This document shows, one piece after another, positions 12,045 through 19,831 of a stretch of 64,000 nt of DNA. Position 1 is the stretch's first letter. Each line of letters starts with the position of its first letter. This DNA is from Myxococcales bacterium SG8_38. Its GTDB lineage: Bacteria > Myxococcota_A > Polyangia > Polyangiales > Houyiibacteriaceae. The position numbers and the translations under genes were made by a program. The DNA lies in the NCBI GenBank assembly GCA_001303415.1, contig LJTN01000004.1, forward strand, positions 6,067 to 70,066. Reading direction: 5' to 3'. The notes under the pieces were generated by a model that did not search any database, had not been told where the DNA came from, and worked only from the letters and a program-made list of their open reading frames with translations.

Positions 12045-12578
12045 ATGAGCAGGCGCCGAACACGACCCGATACCTCTGGAAAGCCTGGCTATGTCACGCC
12101 TGAAGGCTATCGCCGCTTCGAAGAGGAAGCGGACCGCCTGTGGAACGAGGATCGCCCGAAGATGGCCAAGGCGGTCCAAGTCGCGGCCGCCGAAGGCGAC
12201 CGATCCGAGAATGCCGAGTACCAGTACAGCAAACAGCGGCTCGCCGCGATCGACCGGCGGCTTCGATTTCTGGGACAGCGGCTCGATGTGCTGACCATCG
12301 TCGACCAAAAGCCGCCCGACGACGGACGGGTCTATTTCGGGAGCTGGGTCACGCTCGAAGACGAAGACGGCGCCGTGCAAGTCTATCGGATCGTCGGGCC
12401 GGACGAGATCGATGCCAAGAAGGGATGGATCAGCATGGATTCTCCAGTCGGAAGGTCGCTCTTGTCGCGGGAGGTCGGAGACGAGCTCACCATCCAGCGT
12501 CCGAGGGGCGAAGTGACGTACGAGATCGTCGAGGTGCGAAATACGCCCCCCGACGGATCCAGAGGGAAGGACGCATGA
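12045..12578 (+). CDS. greB: transcription elongation factor GreB (GreA/GreB family)
   Basis: Internal ATG 12045 behind GAAGAAGGGG. Gre coiled-coil with acidic tip (AAAEGDRSENAEYQYSKQRL) and a C-terminal globular domain (MDSPVGRSLL). Confidence 0.8.
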   Translation: MSRRRTRPDTSGKPGYVTPEGYRRFEEEADRLWNEDRPKMAKAVQVAAAEGDRSENAEYQYSKQRLAAIDRRLRFLGQRLDVLTIVDQKPPDDGRVYFGSWVTLEDEDGAVQVYRIVGPDEIDAKKGWISMDSPVGRSLLSREVGDELTIQRPRGEVTYEIVEVRNTPPDGSRGKDA

Positions 12579-12658
12579 GCGGCCAGCGAGAGGATGTTGG
12601 CGACCTTTTCACCGTCGTCGACACACTCAACGGCCTCTGACTGGGACACGCGTTGCGC

Positions 12659-13141
12659 TCAGGAGAAGGGGTTGGGCTGCCACATGCGGACGCCCAGTAG
12701 GAAGGGGATGATCCAGTATGGTCCGTTGAATGCCCAGAAGACGAGCGGGTTTCCTGGAGGAGGGCCGATCCAGTACTCGTAGATGAGGAACTCGGTACAG
12801 CCGTGCAACATGGCGCCGACGTAGACGAGCGCCATGGGCCGAATCCAGTTCTTCCCCTTGATGAACGCGTAGACCAGCAGAAGATAGAACGGCCCATATA
12901 CGAGACCCGAGATCCCCGTGTTGACCCGAACGAACTCGTGCTCAGCCATGAAGAAGTAGTCTTGGGCGACCTCCGCGTACCAGCGGTTGGCCCGAGACCA
13001 GAAGGCATCGCCCTCGAGCAGGCCGAGCGCGTGCCAGGAATCCGAAAAGAAGGAAGAGAACGCGAAAAACGAAAAGCTGACGACGAAGAAAATGTCCCGC
13101 TTTCGTTGGCTGAGCGGCAAACCGTCACTGGATCCAGCCAT
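12659..13141 (-). CDS. EXPERA-domain membrane protein resembling TMEM97 / sigma-2 receptor (EBP superfamily)
   Basis: ATG 13141 behind GGGAGGA. The 160-aa, 4-TM protein has WYAEVAQD, YAFIKGKNWIRPMALVY and GPYWIIPFLL. These line up with the TMEM97 motifs as I recall them: WYAKEFKD, YAFLKGSCKWIRTPAIIY and APYLLIPFIL. Confidence 0.55.
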   Translation of the reverse strand: MAGSSDGLPLSQRKRDIFFVVSFSFFAFSSFFSDSWHALGLLEGDAFWSRANRWYAEVAQDYFFMAEHEFVRVNTGISGLVYGPFYLLLVYAFIKGKNWIRPMALVYVGAMLHGCTEFLIYEYWIGPPPGNPLVFWAFNGPYWIIPFLLGVRMWQPNPFS

Positions 13142-13268
13142 CTGTCCTCCCGAAAAACGGCCCCACGTATAACACCTATTCGGGACGGCGAGCGATGCTA
13201 AATTCGCGTGCTCCTCTGGACGACGATCGCCTTTGGCTAAAGGCCTCCGGCTTTTCGTGGCACTCGGT

Positions 13269-14177
13269 CTAGGACTGGCTGCGGCGTCGCGCTCGACGTG
13301 AAACCGCGTCCAACACCCGCGCAAAGAGGGCTGCATCCCGTGATTCCGGTTCACGCTGATCCGTCTTCTTACCCGACTCGGGATACAGCCGATAAGCAGC
13401 GTTCAGGACTCGATCGACCGCCCTCGGCGCCATCCCATACGCGAGCTCGAATGCGTTGCCGACCGGCGTGGCGACGCGCTTCGGGCGATCGATGATGCCC
13501 TCGACGATCAGCTCTGTCGCTTCTTCGGGGGAACGCGCAGGGAAAGCGTCGTAGATGGTCGTCGACGCCATCATCGGCGTCTTGACCAGAGGCATGTAGA
13601 TGGTGGTCACTTTCACCCCATCCTCGAGGGTTTCCACCGCCAACACGCGGCTGAACGCATCGAGGGCCGCTTTGCTCGCAAGGTAGGCTCCGTAGCGCGG
13701 CACGTTCACTTGAGCTCCGATCGTCGACACGTTGAGAATGTGTCCGTCTTTCCTCTCACGCATGCCCGGCACGAAACCCAAGATGAGCCGCACCGCGCCG
13801 AGAAAGTTCAGCGCAATCGTTCGTTCGAAGTCCTGGATCCGATCGTAGGACTTGGCGACGCTTCGGCGAATCGAAATGCCGGCATTGTTTATCAGAATGT
13901 CCACGTGACCGTGCTCGCGGACTATGGCCGCGATGGCTCGCTGGGTATCTGGCCCGTCCGATAGGTCGCAGGGATGGACGAATGCGGTCCCGCCCCGACT
14001 TTCGATTGCCTGCTTGACCTGAGCGAGCTTCTCGGCCGACCGTGCGATTAGCAAGACGATGGCGCCCGCGTCGGCCAATCGATGCGCGAGGGCTTCCCCG
14101 ATTCCGCTCGACGCACCGGTGACCACGACCTTGCGGCCGCAAACCCGCGCGCGGAGCTCGTCGTTCGCGCTTCTCAC
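13269..14177 (-). CDS. SDR-family oxidoreductase (classical, COG0300-like)
   Basis: VVVTGASSGIGEA, NNAG and YLASKAA motifs. The GTG start at 14177 overlaps the stop of the upstream AGPS-like gene (GTGA). The upstream 155 codons of ORF 13269-14642 are an R/P-rich shadow. Confidence 0.8.
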   Translation of the reverse strand: MRSANDELRARVCGRKVVVTGASSGIGEALAHRLADAGAIVLLIARSAEKLAQVKQAIESRGGTAFVHPCDLSDGPDTQRAIAAIVREHGHVDILINNAGISIRRSVAKSYDRIQDFERTIALNFLGAVRLILGFVPGMRERKDGHILNVSTIGAQVNVPRYGAYLASKAALDAFSRVLAVETLEDGVKVTTIYMPLVKTPMMASTTIYDAFPARSPEEATELIVEGIIDRPKRVATPVGNAFELAYGMAPRAVDRVLNAAYRLYPESGKKTDQREPESRDAALFARVLDAVSRRARRRSQS

Positions 14178-15889
14178 GGGAACCGACGTTCCTCGTCGGG
14201 CAGATCGAGCGCCAGCGTGCCGCCGGGATTGAGCACGTTGTGTGGATCGAAGTGGCGCTTGAGCGCTCGAAACACCTCGAGCTCGTTGCTGCCGATCTGG
14301 CCCTCGAGCCACGGCGCCGTCATCTTTCCGATGCCGTGGTGGTGGCTCATCGTCGCGCCCGAAGACTGGATGGCATCGAGCATGCCTCGATGGAAGTCGA
14401 CGAACTCCTGGTGGCCCATCTTGGCAATGAAGATGAAGTAGAGATTGGCTCCCTGGGGATAGCAGTGAGACATGTGGGTCATGCAAATGGTCTTGGGCCG
14501 GCTCTTGACGTACGCCCGCACGTGCTCGTGCACCTTCGGGAGCTGCTCCCAGTTCGTGGCGCATTCGAGGGTATCGATCAGAATGCCGAAGTCCTGTACG
14601 TCCTCGCGCATGTAGGGATCGGTGAACCGGCCGTGCTCCCACTTCTTCGTGATCAAGCCGGTCGTGTACATCCCGCCATGGGCGCTACAAACCTGGCGAA
14701 TGCGCCGCTTGACCATGCTGGTGTAGGCGGCGTCACCGTCCGTGGTGCCCAGGAGCAGGCACCGTTCTCCCTTCTTGCATCCTCGCAGGCTGACCAGCGT
14801 ATCGATTGGAGTGCCTTCCACGCCGTAGAGCTTGAAGGCTATGTCGGTCTCTTCGGGATCGGACAGCCGGAAAACGGAAGGAAACCCGAACCCACCTTGC
14901 ATGATCTCGCGAACGGCAGCGACCGCACGGGGCCAGTCCGGAAAAATGAAGCTGAAGCGGCGCGTGTTTTGCGGATTGTGACGAAAGATCTTCAGCGTAA
15001 CCTCGATCAGGATTCCGTAGGCGCCTTCGCTGCCGATCATGATCTGGTCGAGGTTTGGCCCCGTCGCATAGGCAGGCACGTCGACCGTCTCGATGGTGCC
15101 GACCGGTGTGACGTACTTCTGGCTCAGCACCAGGTCTTCGGCCTTGCCGTAGTAGGTGGAGTTCTGGCCCGCACCGCGTGTGACGACCCAACCTCCGATG
15201 GACGAATATTCGAAAGACTGCGGGAACTGGCCGCAGGTGTACGCGTGGGGCGCCTTGAAACGCTGACGAGCATCGTTGAGCGCTTCCTCCAGGGCAGGCC
15301 CGAGAATCCCTGGCTCCACCGTCACGGTCTGATTCACCGGGTTGAGCGAGAGGATTCGGTTCATGTGCGTGCCCAGATGAATGGACACCCCTGCTCGGTA
15401 GCACTCAGTCCCACGGGTGACGCTCGAGCCAGCGCCGAACGTGTAGAGCGGGATTCTCTGCTCGTGGCAGTAGCCGACGATCTCTTCGACGTCTTGGCCG
15501 TGGCGAGGATGTAGAACGAGGTCGGGCAGATTCTCGACTTGGTGGTCTCGCAGGCGAAGCGCATCGAGCATCGTCTTGCCGTAGGAGACGCGCAGCCGGT
15601 CATACTCGTCGTCGCTCACGTTCTCTTCGCCTAGAAGGCCACGAAAGAAGGCGACCTGCTCCGGCCGAAGCGAGATAGGTGCATCCACCTTCACCTCTTC
15701 CAAGCCGAGCTTCTGTGGCGTTCGGAAGTACTCGTCGTCGAGGTCGAACGTCTCCTTCATGAGCGCGTATAGACGAGGATTCGGATGCTTGTAAGCCTCC
15801 GGGGCTCCCCATTTGAATGCCGATCGATACGAGCGCTCTGGGAGCGACCCCTCGAACCATTCTGGCGTGAAAGAATCCTTGCTCGTCAT
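14174..15889 (-). CDS. FAD-linked oxidase resembling alkyl-dihydroxyacetonephosphate synthase (AGPS)
   Basis: Internal ATG at 15889. Matching blocks are PDLVLHPRHGQDVEEIV, GGWVVTRGAGQNSTYYGKAEDLV, ATGPNLDQIMIGSEGAYGILIEVTLKI and the tri-His loop SHHHGIGK. These match my recollection of eukaryotic AGPS. Confidence 0.75.
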   Translation of the reverse strand: MTSKDSFTPEWFEGSLPERSYRSAFKWGAPEAYKHPNPRLYALMKETFDLDDEYFRTPQKLGLEEVKVDAPISLRPEQVAFFRGLLGEENVSDDEYDRLRVSYGKTMLDALRLRDHQVENLPDLVLHPRHGQDVEEIVGYCHEQRIPLYTFGAGSSVTRGTECYRAGVSIHLGTHMNRILSLNPVNQTVTVEPGILGPALEEALNDARQRFKAPHAYTCGQFPQSFEYSSIGGWVVTRGAGQNSTYYGKAEDLVLSQKYVTPVGTIETVDVPAYATGPNLDQIMIGSEGAYGILIEVTLKIFRHNPQNTRRFSFIFPDWPRAVAAVREIMQGGFGFPSVFRLSDPEETDIAFKLYGVEGTPIDTLVSLRGCKKGERCLLLGTTDGDAAYTSMVKRRIRQVCSAHGGMYTTGLITKKWEHGRFTDPYMREDVQDFGILIDTLECATNWEQLPKVHEHVRAYVKSRPKTICMTHMSHCYPQGANLYFIFIAKMGHQEFVDFHRGMLDAIQSSGATMSHHHGIGKMTAPWLEGQIGSNELEVFRALKRHFDPHNVLNPGGTLALDLPDEERRFP

Positions 15890-15959
15890 ATGGTTCTGGA
15901 AGATACCATGCACCGGGCATCTCACGCTGGGAGAAGAGGCTACCGATGAGGAATGGACG

Positions 15960-16742
15960 ATGACTGCGAGGGAAGTCGCCTTGATCACTGGCGCATCGAT
16001 GGGCATTGGCGCGGAGCTGGCAAGGCTCTTCGCCGCAGATGGTCGCGATCTCGTGCTGGTGGCCCGCACCGAGGACAAGCTCCGCAGCCTCGCTCAGGAG
16101 CTGGAGACCGCGCACGGCATCACCGCTCATGTCGTGCCTTGCGATCTTTCCAATCCCGCGGCCCCCGCGGAGCTGTTCGAGACGCTCGAAGGCAGGGGTC
16201 TTCAGGTCGACTACTTGGTCAACAACGCCGGCTTTGGAGCCACAGGCGCTTTCGCGGAGCTTTCTTTGCAGCTCCAGATGGACATGCTCCAAGTGAACAT
16301 CGACGCGCTGGTCGCCCTCACACATCTTGCGCTGCAGGGAATGCTCGCCCGCAACAAAGGCCGAATCCTGAACATCGCGTCCACTGCGGGATTCCAACCG
16401 GGCCCAGACATGGCCGTCTACTACGCGAGCAAGTCGTTCGTCATCATGTTCTCGGAAGGAATCGCCGAAGAGGTGAAAAGCCATGGGGTGACCGTCACTG
16501 CGCACTGCCCCGGGGCCACTGCAACGAACTTCGCGCAAACGGCAGGCAACGCACAGAGCTTTCTATTCAAGCTCGGTGCAGCGCCGCCGGACAAGGTCGC
16601 CCGGCACGCCTATCGATCGATGATGAAGGGCAAGGTCCTTGCCATCGAAGGCTTCATGAACCGCTTGGTGGCATTCAGCATCCGCTTCTCGCCCCGAGTA
16701 TTGGTCCGAAAAATCGCTCGTTGGCTCAACCAGACCGGGTAG
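15960..16742 (+). CDS. SDR-family oxidoreductase
   Basis: ATG 15960 behind GAGGAA. ALITGASMGIGAE, NNAG and YYASKSF motifs. It is divergent from the AGPS-like gene across a 70-bp spacer. Confidence 0.8.
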   Translation: MTAREVALITGASMGIGAELARLFAADGRDLVLVARTEDKLRSLAQELETAHGITAHVVPCDLSNPAAPAELFETLEGRGLQVDYLVNNAGFGATGAFAELSLQLQMDMLQVNIDALVALTHLALQGMLARNKGRILNIASTAGFQPGPDMAVYYASKSFVIMFSEGIAEEVKSHGVTVTAHCPGATATNFAQTAGNAQSFLFKLGAAPPDKVARHAYRSMMKGKVLAIEGFMNRLVAFSIRFSPRVLVRKIARWLNQTG

Positions 16743-16749
16743 ATCCGAG

Positions 16750-17958
16750 TCAGGCGTATTTCTTGAGCTCGAGCCTCGCGACCATGCCTCGATGAACCTC
16801 GTCGGGGCCATCGGCGATGCGGAGCGCTCGGGCCATGGCCAGCAACCGCGTGAGCTCGGGATCCGCCATGCCTTCGCCGCCGTGTATCTGGATCGCCGCA
16901 TCGACGACCGACTGCAACACGTTCGGGGCGATGACCTTGATCGCAGAGATGTCGACCAAGGCGCCAAACGTCCCGTAGGTATCGAGCGCCCAGGCGGCTT
17001 TGAGCGTGAGGAGTCGGGCCTGATCGATCGCCATGCGCGAGTTGGCGATGATGTCTCGGTTGCCGCCCAAGTTCGCGAGCGGCTTGCCAAAGGCGACCCG
17101 GTGGACCGCACGCTCACAAAGGCGCTGCAGGGCGCGCTCCGCCGCTCCGATGGCCCGCATGCAGTGGTGAATGCGTCCGGGACCCAGCCGGCCCTGCGCG
17201 ATCTCGAAGCCACGACCCGGCCCTGCGATGATGCTGCTCACCGGCAGGCGCACGTCTTCGAACGAGATCTCGGCATGACCGTGCGGCTCGTCCAAGTCTC
17301 CAAATACCGGCACCATGCGGAGGACGTTCACGCCTGGCGCATCGGACGGCACGAGCACCATGGAGTGCCGCTCGTGGCGTCCGCCATTGGGGTCGGTGAC
17401 TCCCATGAAAATGTAGAAGGCGCAGCGCGGGTCCCCTGCGCCGCTGGTCCACCACTTCTGACCGTTGAGCACTACCTCGTCGCCCACGACCTCACACGTC
17501 GCTTGCATGTTCGTAGCATCGCTCGAGGCCACCGCGGGCTCGGTCATCGCGAAACCGGATCGAATCTCTCCGGAAAGCAGCGGCTCGAGCCAACGCTTCT
17601 TTTGCTCGTCTGATCCGTACTTGACCAAGACCTCGGCGTTACCCGTATCGGGTGCGCTGCAGTTGAATACCTCCGGCGCCAAGAAGCTCCGGCCTGTAAT
17701 CTCGGCAATGGGCGCATAGTCGCGGTTGTCTAGGCCCGCGCCGTACTCCTCGTCGGGTAGGAAGAGATTCCAGAGCCCGAGCTCCTTGGCTTCGGCTTTG
17801 AGCTTCTCGATGATGGGAGGGATCTTCCACTGCCGCCAATCATCGGTGCCCACCCGCTCATCGAGGTACCTCTGCTCGTTGGGTAGAACCCGCTCCCGCA
17901 CGAAACGCTCGACCTGACGCATCAGGTTTTTCGCTCGCTCCGAATGCTCGAAATCCAT
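16750..17958 (-). CDS. acyl-CoA dehydrogenase
   Basis: ATG at 17958. Typical ACAD N, middle and C domains ([24 protein letters not shown]). Confidence 0.85.
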
Positions 17959-18046
17959 GGTTGTTCTAATACCGCATGCAAGCGAGGAATTCACGTGGGA
18001 AGTGGGCCCGTCTTGGTGCTAGGGTGCGCCCCCAGCGGAGCTCCAC

Positions 18047-19831
18047 ATGCCAGCACAGGGCAATCCTCTGATCGACGACGGGCTCGTCGACTTCCTCCTC
18101 TACGCGGTTCTCGACGCCGAGTCGCTCTGCCAGCTCGAAGCCTACCAGCAGCACTCGAAAGAGACCTTCGACCTGTACATCGACAGTGTCCGACGTTTCG
18201 CACGGCAGGATCTTTGGCCGACGTACAAGCCCATGGATGAGAACCCACCCGTGTTTCGGGATGGCCGGATCCATACGCACCCGGGGCTTCCCGCCCTCTT
18301 CGAGCAGATGGTCGACTTGGGTGTGCTGAGTGCAACTCGATCCGAATCGGTCGGCGGCCAACAGATGCCCATGCTGGTGCACACCTTGGCCAGCGCGTAT
18401 CTCATGGCGGCAAACCTCGGCGCTTACGGCTTCATCGGGCTCACGCACGGCGCAGCACATCTGATCGAAGCGTTTGGCGACGACGAGCTCAAGACGCAGT
18501 TCATGGAGCGGATGTACGCGGGCGAATGGACCGGCACGATGGCTCTGACCGAGCCTCACGCCGGAAGCAGCCTGGCCGACATCACGACGACCGCCACCCC
18601 CACGGACCACGACTACTACCTGATCAAGGGAAGCAAAATCTTCATCTCCGGTGCGGACCACGGCATCACGGACAACGTGATCAATCTGACCCTGGCTCGC
18701 ATCGAAGGCGCACCCGAAGGGACCAAGGGCATTTCTCTATTCGCGGTCCCCAAGCTTCGCGAGGAGGGCGGCCGGCTCGTTTCGAACGACGTCACGGTCG
18801 CAGGCCTCATCCACAAGATCGGGTGGAAAGGCCTCCCCAGCTTGGCGCTCGAGTTTGGCGACGAAGGCGATTGTCGGGGTTGGCTGGTCGGAGAGCCCAA
18901 CCAAGGGCTTCGATACATGTTTCAGATGATGAACCAAGCCCGCATCATGGTCGGCGTCAACGCCGCCGCTACCGCCTCCGCCGCCTACCACGAATCGCGA
19001 TTGTACGCGCTCGATCGCAAGCAAGGGCGCAAGCTGGGTACGCGTGACAGCGAGCCGGTGCCGATCATCGAGCACGCCGACGTCCGGCGCATGCTGCTGC
19101 GGCAAAAGGCGATCGTGGAAGGAAGCCTCGCCCTTCTGGCAACCGTTGCCAAGTACGCAGACGTCGCGGATCACGGAACGACCGAGCAAGAACGCGAAAG
19201 AGCGCAGCTGCTGCTCGACCTGTTGACTCCCGTCGCCAAGACGTTCCCTGCCGAGCGAGGGTTCGAAGCCAATGCGCTGGCGATTCAGATCCACGGCGGA
19301 TACGGCTACACCAGCGAGTATCTTCCGGAGGCGTTCATGCGCGATCAGAAGCTCAATAGCCTCCACGAGGGCACGAGCGGAATCCAAAGCATGGACCTGC
19401 TGGGCCGCAAGGTCATGTCCAAGGGCGGCGCGCCGCTGCGAGCTCTCGCCGAAGAATTGACCAGCGCCATCGGCCGCGCCAGGGAGTCGGGTTGCGACCG
19501 AGACTTGTGTGATGCGCTCGAGAGGGCCGTCGAAACGGTGGGCGCGACCACGATGCAGCTGGGCCAACGCGGAATGTCGGGTGACACCGATGGCATGCTA
19601 GGGCACAGCTGGGATTACCTCGACATGTTCGCAACGCTGGTAATCGGCTGGCAATGGCTCCTCATGGATGCGGCTGCTCACACATCCTCCATCTCCGAAA
19701 CGCGAAGGCGAGGAATCGAGGCAGCGGCCAGGTATTGGATCCAAACCGAGATACCCCGGATTTCGATCCTGGCGAACCTCTGCTTGTCGAACGAACGCTC
19801 GTACATCGATGCGGAGGCGGATTGGTTCTGA
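18047..19831 (+). CDS. long-form acyl-CoA dehydrogenase (about 590 aa, extended N- and C-terminal domains)
   Basis: GTMALTEPHAGSSLADI and QIHGGYGYTSEY motifs. The length and C-terminal extension are typical of the 600-aa ACAD subgroup. Confidence 0.8.
   Translation: MPAQGNPLIDDGLVDFLLYAVLDAESLCQLEAYQQHSKETFDLYIDSVRRFARQDLWPTYKPMDENPPVFRDGRIHTHPGLPALFEQMVDLGVLSATRSESVGGQQMPMLVHTLASAYLMAANLGAYGFIGLTHGAAHLIEAFGDDELKTQFMERMYAGEWTGTMALTEPHAGSSLADITTTATPTDHDYYLIKGSKIFISGADHGITDNVINLTLARIEGAPEGTKGISLFAVPKLREEGGRLVSNDVTVAGLIHKIGWKGLPSLALEFGDEGDCRGWLVGEPNQGLRYMFQMMNQARIMVGVNAAATASAAYHESRLYALDRKQGRKLGTRDSEPVPIIEHADVRRMLLRQKAIVEGSLALLATVAKYADVADHGTTEQERERAQLLLDLLTPVAKTFPAERGFEANALAIQIHGGYGYTSEYLPEAFMRDQKLNSLHEGTSGIQSMDLLGRKVMSKGGAPLRALAEELTSAIGRARESGCDRDLCDALERAVETVGATTMQLGQRGMSGDTDGMLGHSWDYLDMFATLVIGWQWLLMDAAAHTSSISETRRRGIEAAARYWIQTEIPRISILANLCLSNERSYIDAEADWF

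Follow-up and report, generated by a model that had tools for sequence, protein, structure and literature searches.

Homologs of alkyl-dihydroxyacetone phosphate (alkyl-DHAP) synthase (AGPS) are already known from bacteria: they are annotated as such by JGI and have been published for Myxococcota, Acidobacteriota, and other groups. Bacterial alkyl ether lipids serve as environmental biomarkers, and they enter into the debate on how eukaryotic plasmalogen synthesis arose. Genetic support exists for just two aerobic bacterial routes toward them, ElbD and MXAN_1676, both from Myxococcus. In Myxococcus xanthus, the MXAN_1676-MXAN_1675-MXAN_1674 operon encodes an AGPS, a protein that fuses a fatty acyl-CoA reductase (FAR) to an acyltransferase, and an NAD-epimerase-family protein, and MXAN_1676 contributes to alkyl ether lipids to a minor degree (PMC9131029, PMC13012113). 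Here, we describe a locus that points to a third arrangement, made up of an AGPS of a different, uncharacterized subfamily and a nonhomologous Acr1-type reductase. It lies in a stretch of 64,000 nucleotides (the window) from Myxococcales bacterium SG8_38 (contig LJTN01000004.1, positions 6,067 to 70,066), whose genome is a 3.6-Mb, 92%-complete metagenome-assembled genome (MAG) of an uncultured soil myxobacterium of the Polyangiales. The genes in question encode an AGPS-family flavoenzyme (P0001), a short-chain dehydrogenase/reductase (SDR) coupled to it (P0002), and a second, divergently transcribed SDR (P0003) (Table 1).

The M. xanthus operon resembles the window locus in its gene order, with an AGPS homolog followed by an acyl-CoA reductase function. 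However, that function resides in a NAD_binding_4 FAR domain in M. xanthus and would reside in a nonhomologous, Acr1-type classical SDR in the window, the acyltransferase is fused in M. xanthus whereas none is fused or adjacent in the window, and the two AGPS proteins belong to different subfamilies. Eukaryotic AGPS/ADPS (EC 2.5.1.26; PDB entries 2uuu and 4bby) shares with P0001 the two-domain PCMH/VAO fold and the N-terminal extension but has its dictyostelid representative in a separate clade and works in a peroxisomal context, whereas P0001 has no such context and an activity that is predicted only. P0002, in turn, has the motifs and the C-terminal extension of Acr1, Rv1543 (FCR2), Rv3391 (FCR1), and Maqu_2507 and is similar in length (302 versus 296 amino acids [aa]), while those enzymes serve wax-ester synthesis and have no link to an AGPS-like gene. 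In the literature searched, we found no description of the function of the P0001 subfamily, of the coupling of an AGPS-like gene to an Acr1-type reductase, or of the kinase/GlpA operons in which relatives of P0001 occur (see below).

P0001 and its bacterial AGPS subfamily

By sequence, fold, and tree, P0001 is a member of the AGPS family. Its two Pfam domains (residues 122-269 and 306-556) are preceded by an AGPS-type N-terminal extension, of which residues 29-120 align to residues 41-141 of Dictyostelium ADPS. An earlier note on this DNA, made from the sequence alone, had recognized AGPS-like blocks in a 571-aa FAD-linked oxidase, and all of these were located, at residues 232-241 (GGWVVTRGAG), 247-254 (YGKAEDLV, noted as YG..EDLV), and 515-522 (SHHHGIGK). 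The top PDB sequence match was Dictyostelium ADPS (2uuu; E 2.7e-67, 231 bits, query residues 29-556), followed by guinea pig AGPS (4bby; E 1.2e-48, 169 bits), with an identity to eukaryotic AGPS of only about 25-31%. Matches to GlcD and D-lactate dehydrogenase (D-LDH) were limited to the FAD domain and reached about 1e-24 and at most 88 bits, and the glycolate oxidase model TIGR00387 gave 143 bits, below its family cutoff of 568. Similarly, when the AlphaFold (AF2) model of P0001 (pLDDT 86) was compared with the PDB by Foldseek, ranks 1 to 37 were all AGPS (TM score, 0.75-0.82), with D-LDH next at 0.69. Finally, the AGPS family, including eukaryotic AGPS, formed one clade that excluded GlcD/YdiJ-like oxidases, with a branch support of 100 in both FastTree and IQ-TREE. 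Family score, PDB sequence matches, fold, and trees together rule out a GlcD or D-LDH identity; the AGPS-like assignment of the earlier note thus stands, and the clustering with glycolate or D-lactate oxidases that it had named as counterevidence was not observed.

In guinea pig AGPS, Arg419, Tyr578, and His615-617 are reported to be catalytic (Razeto, 2007; Nenci, 2012). Counted along the printed alignment, these positions correspond to R341, Y484, and H516-518 of P0001, and PDB titles describe 4bc7 as the Arg419His mutant and 4bca as the Tyr578Phe mutant. In an alignment of 27 diverse family members, down to 30% identity, R341, Y484, H516, H517, and H518 are invariant. From the sequence, we infer AGPS chemistry for P0001.

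The subfamily to which P0001 belongs was placed with a search of 1.84 billion representatives, which returned 827 proteins at E 1e-30 or better, and with trees of full-length representatives, locus-derived proteins, and GlcD/YdiJ-like outgroups. These were quick trees, without bootstraps, in which many rows had a skewed composition. P0001 was found in a 13-row clade (SH-aLRT 100) nested in a 23-row clade (95-97). The dictyostelid AGPS (P0368; 1,092 bits to 2uuu) was found in another, 8-row clade (100), together with a fusion of a PlsC acyltransferase and AGPS, and P0001 is thus not placed as an ortholog of the eukaryotic or canonical AGPS clade. The backbone between the two clades was poorly supported, in agreement with a published remark that AGPS has too little phylogenetic signal. 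Judged by its sequence, P0001 belongs to a bacterial AGPS subfamily and is not of the eukaryotic type. To call the ether-lipid core "eukaryote-style," as the earlier note did, therefore goes too far: membership in the AGPS family stands and an ether-lipid role is plausible, but the subfamily is a bacterial one, apart from the dictyostelid clade and probably in a broad clade with the uncharacterized Escherichia coli YgcU.

Outside the Polyangiales, the nearest relatives of P0001 (52-61% identical) are from Spirochaetota, Anaerolineae, Bacilli, Desulfobotulus, and one Myxococcota genome, and the subfamily is widespread in anaerobes. The operons of these relatives (L033-L052, e.g., L036:962-7713) encode a FadR-type regulator, a GlpA-like FAD/2Fe-2S dehydrogenase, a pyridine-nucleotide-disulfide oxidoreductase, a DUF1667 protein, and an FGGY kinase, a homolog of E. 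coli YgcE (E 3e-50). YgcU of E. coli K-12 (b4463) may belong to the subfamily as well: it is 27% identical to P0001, has the HHH and Tyr motifs, and joins the 23-row clade at 97, but it does so on a very long branch (length, 1.85). Its neighbors are an SDR (YgcW), ETF-like (electron transfer flavoprotein-like) genes, and YgcE. The anaerobe operons and, if its placement holds, the ygc cluster share the broad AGPS subfamily with P0001, and the HHH and Tyr motifs are common to them. These loci bring together a kinase, a glycerol-3-phosphate (G3P)-dehydrogenase-like enzyme, and, in E. coli, ETF-like proteins; no FGGY kinase, G3P-dehydrogenase-like, Fe-S, or ETF partner was found near the P0001 gene, which instead adjoins the gene for an Acr1-like SDR. 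A literature search returned no paper on the function of AGPS-like genes in bacterial glp operons, nor on that of Rv3107c or Rv2251.

Several AGPS-like domains are fused to other enzymes, namely, to GlpD (about 1,100 aa; P0269, P0272, P0301, and P0372), to a PlsC-type acyltransferase (P0330, 801 aa), and to NUDIX hydrolases (P0250 and P0261, 693-792 aa). The fusions with GlpD and the PlsC acyltransferase tie the family to DHAP and acyl-DHAP metabolism. Other distant family members adjoin genes for FadR, GlpA, and a DAGK-type (diacylglycerol kinase-type) lipid kinase. No fusion of an AGPS-like domain to an SDR was present among the 150 best representatives. An apparent 856-aa fusion in a Solirubrobacteraceae MAG (L055) turned out to consist of two adjacent genes in different frames. 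In that locus (L055:6001-8408), the AGPS-like gene (28% identical) is followed by a gene for a PanE/ApbA-type NAD(P)H ketoreductase, possibly a nonorthologous reductase partner.

P0002, an Acr1-family SDR linked to P0001 in the Polyangiales

P0002 is a classical SDR: its glycine motif is of the NADP(H) type, and it has a Ser-Tyr-Lys catalytic motif (TGASSGIG at position 20, Arg46 following strand 2, NNAG at 97, and YLASK at 165). Of the NCBIfam models, PRK07201, which describes proteins of about 657 aa, matches P0002 best, through its C-terminal half (positions 359-638; 369 bits); PRK05866 matched as well, and all other SDR models scored far lower. The same genome encodes a protein of this two-domain type (659 aa), with adh_short placed after NAD_binding_4. 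Over 266 residues, among them an extension past the SDR core, its SDR domain shares 44% identity with P0002. Identity is 57-59% for the SDR domain of another such fusion (FAR-SDR, 658 aa), from a genome of the same genus (G047).

A tblastn search against PLSDB, which includes some whole Acinetobacter baumannii chromosomes, revealed a homolog in A. baumannii that is 50.6% identical to P0002 over 271 aa (residues 8-274) and gives a single match per genome. The gene has 296 codons and adjoins a gene for a pyridoxal phosphate (PLP) enzyme. In Acinetobacter baylyi, acr1 (ACIAD3383) likewise adjoins the PLP-enzyme gene ACIAD3382. While the database record says only SDR, its uniqueness and the synteny with the PLP-enzyme gene make this homolog probably the ortholog of Acr1. 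The alignment of P0002 with the A. baumannii homolog and the SDR domains of the fusions is free of gaps over the family-specific motifs, and the family-specific C-terminal extension is present in P0002.

The identity of P0002 to the A. baumannii homolog reaches the level found among characterized Acr1-type members, which are 41-50% identical to Acr1 (PMC3522743). Among these are two Mtb proteins. Rv3391 (650 aa) shares 40% identity with Maqu_2507, counted over its length, and 41% with Acinetobacter ACR1; the corresponding value for Rv1543 and ACR1 is 48%. Both Mtb proteins reduce fatty acyl-CoA to aldehyde and alcohol (PMC3522743). Additionally, the second neighbor of P0002 in a language-model atlas was a 295-aa cluster named "putative fatty acyl-CoA reductase." No specific tie to acyl/alkyl-DHAP reductases was found, PDB matches being to generic SDRs and PexRAP/DHRS7B and yeast Ayr1 not having been compared directly. 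By its sequence, P0002 is an Acr1-family protein, and its likeliest role is that of a fatty acyl-CoA reductase that would supply fatty alcohol upstream of the AGPS step. The earlier note had assigned the coupled SDR to the step after AGPS, as an alkyl-DHAP reductase; with Acr1/FCR fatty acyl-CoA reductases as its closest relatives of known or assigned function, P0002 would be placed before AGPS instead, and annotations should not carry it forward as the bacterial alkyl-DHAP reductase that is still missing.

The GTGA overlap between the P0001 stop and the start of the coupled SDR, which the note had described as being of the COG0300 type, was confirmed in the sequence. As the P0002 N terminus read from this GTG is conserved in orthologs, the start is credible. 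An ortholog of P0002 (71-89% identical) lies downstream on the same strand in all 30 Polyangiales loci in which the flavoenzyme is 80-94% identical and the flank reaches far enough downstream, so that the arrangement is not due to chance. Only L002 and L003, the two closest relatives, share the exact 4-nucleotide overlap; in the other Polyangiales loci, a gap of about 30 nucleotides to 1.9 kb separates the two genes and sometimes holds a GNAT and/or a carbonic anhydrase gene. A glutathione S-transferase (GST)-like gene often precedes the flavoenzyme gene, and genes for a PlsC-type acyltransferase and/or a DAGK-type lipid kinase are convergent with the cluster in 8 of 18 mapped relatives.

Within the genus, a 77% identical P0002 ortholog occurs only where the window-type flavoenzyme does (G047 and G130). 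Two further genomes (G017 and G035) hold a 48% identical flavoenzyme variant and no P0002 ortholog, and another (G085) holds a 61% identical SDR without the window-type flavoenzyme. In G035 (L074:5914-9383), the variant is followed by genes for a VTT/DedA-domain membrane protein and a DUF6279 protein, with no SDR gene. Most genomes of the genus also hold a second, more canonical AGPS-family gene. In two of them (L081 on G047 C7 and L082 on G085 C3), this canonical gene is accompanied by one or two nearby SDR genes, of which one is divergent; these are other candidates for an alkyl-DHAP reductase. Taken on sequence, the Polyangiales gene pair is plausibly a lineage-restricted ether-lipid pair.

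Candidate roles of the P0001-P0002 pair

The reading that we prefer, to which we would give slightly less than even odds (roughly 45%), is that P0001 and P0002 form a two-gene lipid module that would combine fatty-alcohol supply with ether-bond formation. It starts from the family membership of both proteins, the conserved catalytic residues, and the linkage conserved in one lineage. The two activities, their substrates, and the direction of flux would be as follows. As an NADPH-dependent reductase of the Acr1/FCR type, P0002 would convert acyl-CoA to fatty aldehyde, which P0002 itself, P0003, or a housekeeping reductase would reduce to fatty alcohol. In the cotranslated P0001, the fatty alcohol would then displace the acyl group of acyl-DHAP via a flavin-N5 adduct, yielding alkyl-DHAP, the first ether-linked lipid precursor. 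The pair would thus represent the FAR and AGPS steps of an aerobic ether-lipid route, as MXAN_1676-MXAN_1675 does.

Several observations weigh against this module. Acr1 itself yields aldehyde only, and the AGPS subfamily of P0001 has no characterized member. The AGPS catalytic signature is common to organisms not known for ether lipids and, as such, is no proof of chemistry, which is our main cause of caution regarding P0001; E. coli, for one, is not known to produce ether lipids. The pairing of AGPS-like with Acr1-like genes was restricted to the Polyangiales among the lineages examined: the anaerobe FadR/GlpA-like/DUF1667/FGGY operons of the 52-61% identical relatives hold no SDR or other reductase, and no Acr1-like gene was found at E 1e-35 in Desulfobotulus or in Treponema sp. 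TIM-1. In 23 Actinomycetota genomes with an AGPS-like gene (from a tally of 26 in 101, after exclusion of G171, G201, and G241), an Acr1-like gene was present in four and adjacent in none. Furthermore, neither a DHAP-specific acyltransferase nor an alkyl-DHAP reductase was identified in the host genome, and the FAR encoded on C74 (see below) has no detectable fused FAR-acyltransferase relatives.

Alternatively, P0001 may make no ether bonds and act as a flavin enzyme on a phosphorylated glycerol-like or lipid-derived substrate, as YgcU and the glp-operon members may do, having been recruited beside an acyl-CoA/aldehyde reductase and beta-oxidation genes for some other lipid conversion. P0001 nests (SH-aLRT 100) among kinase/GlpA-like operon proteins of Spirochaetota, Chloroflexota, Bacillota, and Desulfobacterota, and the 23-row clade is joined, at 97, by YgcU, with its HHH and Tyr motifs and its ETF-like, FGGY kinase, and SDR neighbors. 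That most genomes of the genus have a second AGPS-family gene, of a more canonical kind, suggests that the two are not redundant, and no neighbors of the cluster are more conserved than the two genes for acyl-CoA dehydrogenases. However, all three AGPS catalytic elements are invariant, the redox members of the fold (GlcD and D-LDH) score far lower, the partners near the P0001 gene are lipid enzymes rather than Fe-S or ETF proteins, and the placement of YgcU, given its branch length, is unsure. We consider a role of this kind unlikely, although by no means negligible. The assignment of P0002 to the step after AGPS, in which P0001 would be an alkyl-DHAP synthase and P0002 an NADPH-dependent acyl/alkyl-DHAP reductase that forms 1-alkyl-glycerol-3-phosphate, appears improbable to us. 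The known eukaryotic acyl/alkyl-DHAP reductases are classical SDRs, and P0002, a classical SDR of the NADP(H) type, is translationally coupled to P0001 and syntenic with it; in one actinobacterial locus (L055), an unrelated PanE/ApbA NAD(P)H ketoreductase follows the AGPS-like gene, and many AGPS-like genes are fused to, or lie beside, genes for GlpD-type dehydrogenases, whose site of action is likewise C2. Against this, the specific relatives of P0002 are Acr1/FCR reductases (44-59% identical over the full length, C-terminal extension included), and its PDB matches are generic, none of them pointing specifically to a DHAP reductase.

A catabolic or remodeling role, to which we give little credence, would have P0001 reverse the exchange on alkyl-DHAP from scavenged ether lipids and free fatty alcohol, which the SDRs and acyl-CoA dehydrogenases would feed into beta-oxidation. 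The FGGY kinase and the G3P-dehydrogenase-like enzyme that relatives encode under FadR control fit a path from alkylglycerol via alkyl-G3P to alkyl-DHAP, the acyl-CoA dehydrogenase neighbors are conserved, and the organism belongs to a predatory group. Acr1-type enzymes, however, are reductive and NADPH dependent, the reverse reaction is not known from any AGPS, and FGGY kinases are not known to accept lipid substrates. More broadly, we speculate that the P0001 subfamily as a whole, with the anaerobe glp-operon proteins and perhaps YgcU, might perform ether-bond chemistry on DHAP-level glycerolipids; in the Polyangiales, the Acr1-type reductase and P0001 would then make up a minimal module for ether lipids that does not depend on ElbD or CarF, and the kinase/dehydrogenase operons of anaerobes would represent an unrecognized route of alkylglycerol salvage or exchange. 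This extension is decidedly unlikely as it stands.

Neighboring genes and the rest of the pathway

The layout of the locus is given in Table 1. The second SDR gene is divergent and 70 bp away, just as the earlier note had it. Within 12400-17000, including this divergent gap, neither a sigma-70-like promoter nor a convincing terminator was found.

Table 1. Features of the P0001-P0002 locus (positions in the window)
Feature	Position	Strand	Basis
AGPS-family flavoenzyme P0001, 571 aa	14174-15889	-	Open reading frame; Pfam FAD_binding_4 and FAD-oxidase_C
Acr1-family SDR P0002, 302 aa, candidate fatty acyl-CoA reductase	13269-14177	-	adh_short domain
GTGA, overlap of P0001 stop (TGA) and P0002 start (GTG)	14174-14177	-	Direct sequence reading
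SHHHGIGK codons, residues 515-522, His-His-His loop	14324-14347	-	Aligns with guinea pig His615-617
GANLYFIF codons, residues 480-487; Tyr484, equivalent of guinea pig Tyr578	14429-14452	-	Alignment
VFRLSD codons, residues 339-344; Arg341, equivalent of guinea pig Arg419	14858-14875	-	Alignment
Divergent intergenic region, 70 bp between the two ATGs (P0001 and P0003)	15890-15959		Direct sequence reading
Second classical SDR P0003, 260 aa, candidate aldehyde or alkyl-DHAP reductase	15960-16742	+	adh_short domain
Acyl-CoA dehydrogenase genes, divergent pair (span 16750-19831)	16750-17994; 18047-19831	-; +	Pfam Acyl-CoA_dh
EXPERA-domain membrane protein (PF05241, EBP/TMEM97-like), 160 aa	12659-13140	-	

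P0003 is only 37% identical to P0002 and is without the Acr1-family motifs; its matches in NCBIfam and the atlas were all generic. Most relatives have an ortholog upstream, but in eight loci (L007, L015, L017, L024, L029, L030, L032, and L041) it is absent or reduced to a remnant, and in two of these just a C-terminal piece is left (L024:4272-4568, 99 aa aligned; L041:4561-4731, 57 aa aligned). This indicates decay of the P0003 gene while the flavoenzyme-SDR pair was kept. The most constant neighbors are orthologs of the acyl-CoA dehydrogenases (79-95% identical): where a Polyangiales locus includes upstream flank, they nearly always border the cluster, and their genes are possible members of the module. 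On the other side, the EXPERA gene starts 129 nucleotides downstream of the P0002 gene and has its own GGGAGG ribosome-binding site. Since homologs were found only in L002, L004, and L027, with a different arrangement in L002 (the one mapped), we rejected it as a member of the module.

With respect to the described ether-lipid systems, CarF (PF10520) was not detected in the genome, in a search whose control matched in no genome either. No single frame in the genome combines FAR and acyltransferase domains as in ElbD, ElbD itself not having been searched for directly. Likewise, no ortholog of MXAN_1676 was identified among the sampled Myxococcota loci, none of which had the expected FAR-acyltransferase neighbor. 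An operon on C74 (L072:6499-9393) encodes an alpha/beta hydrolase, a 387-aa FAR-like thioester reductase, and a 281-aa PlsC-type acyltransferase. Orthologs of the latter two are present in five of five same-genus genomes tested, and adjacent in four, regardless of the type of AGPS; for this reason, the pair does not discriminate between AGPS types. We considered it as a split version of the FAR-acyltransferase fusion but found no fused relatives. Being present in all five genomes and without fused relatives, it cannot be called a DHAP acyltransferase, although it could be the acyl-DHAP/fatty-alcohol arm of an ether-lipid route. Finally, the gene for the 659-aa reductase, with NAD_binding_4 and Acr1-like SDR domains in the architecture of Maqu_2507 and Rv3391, is located on C80 (L073:3911-5890), where it adjoins genes for an acyl-CoA dehydrogenase and a protein of the 3-beta-hydroxysteroid dehydrogenase (3-beta-HSD) family; this reductase suggests that the organism produces fatty alcohols.

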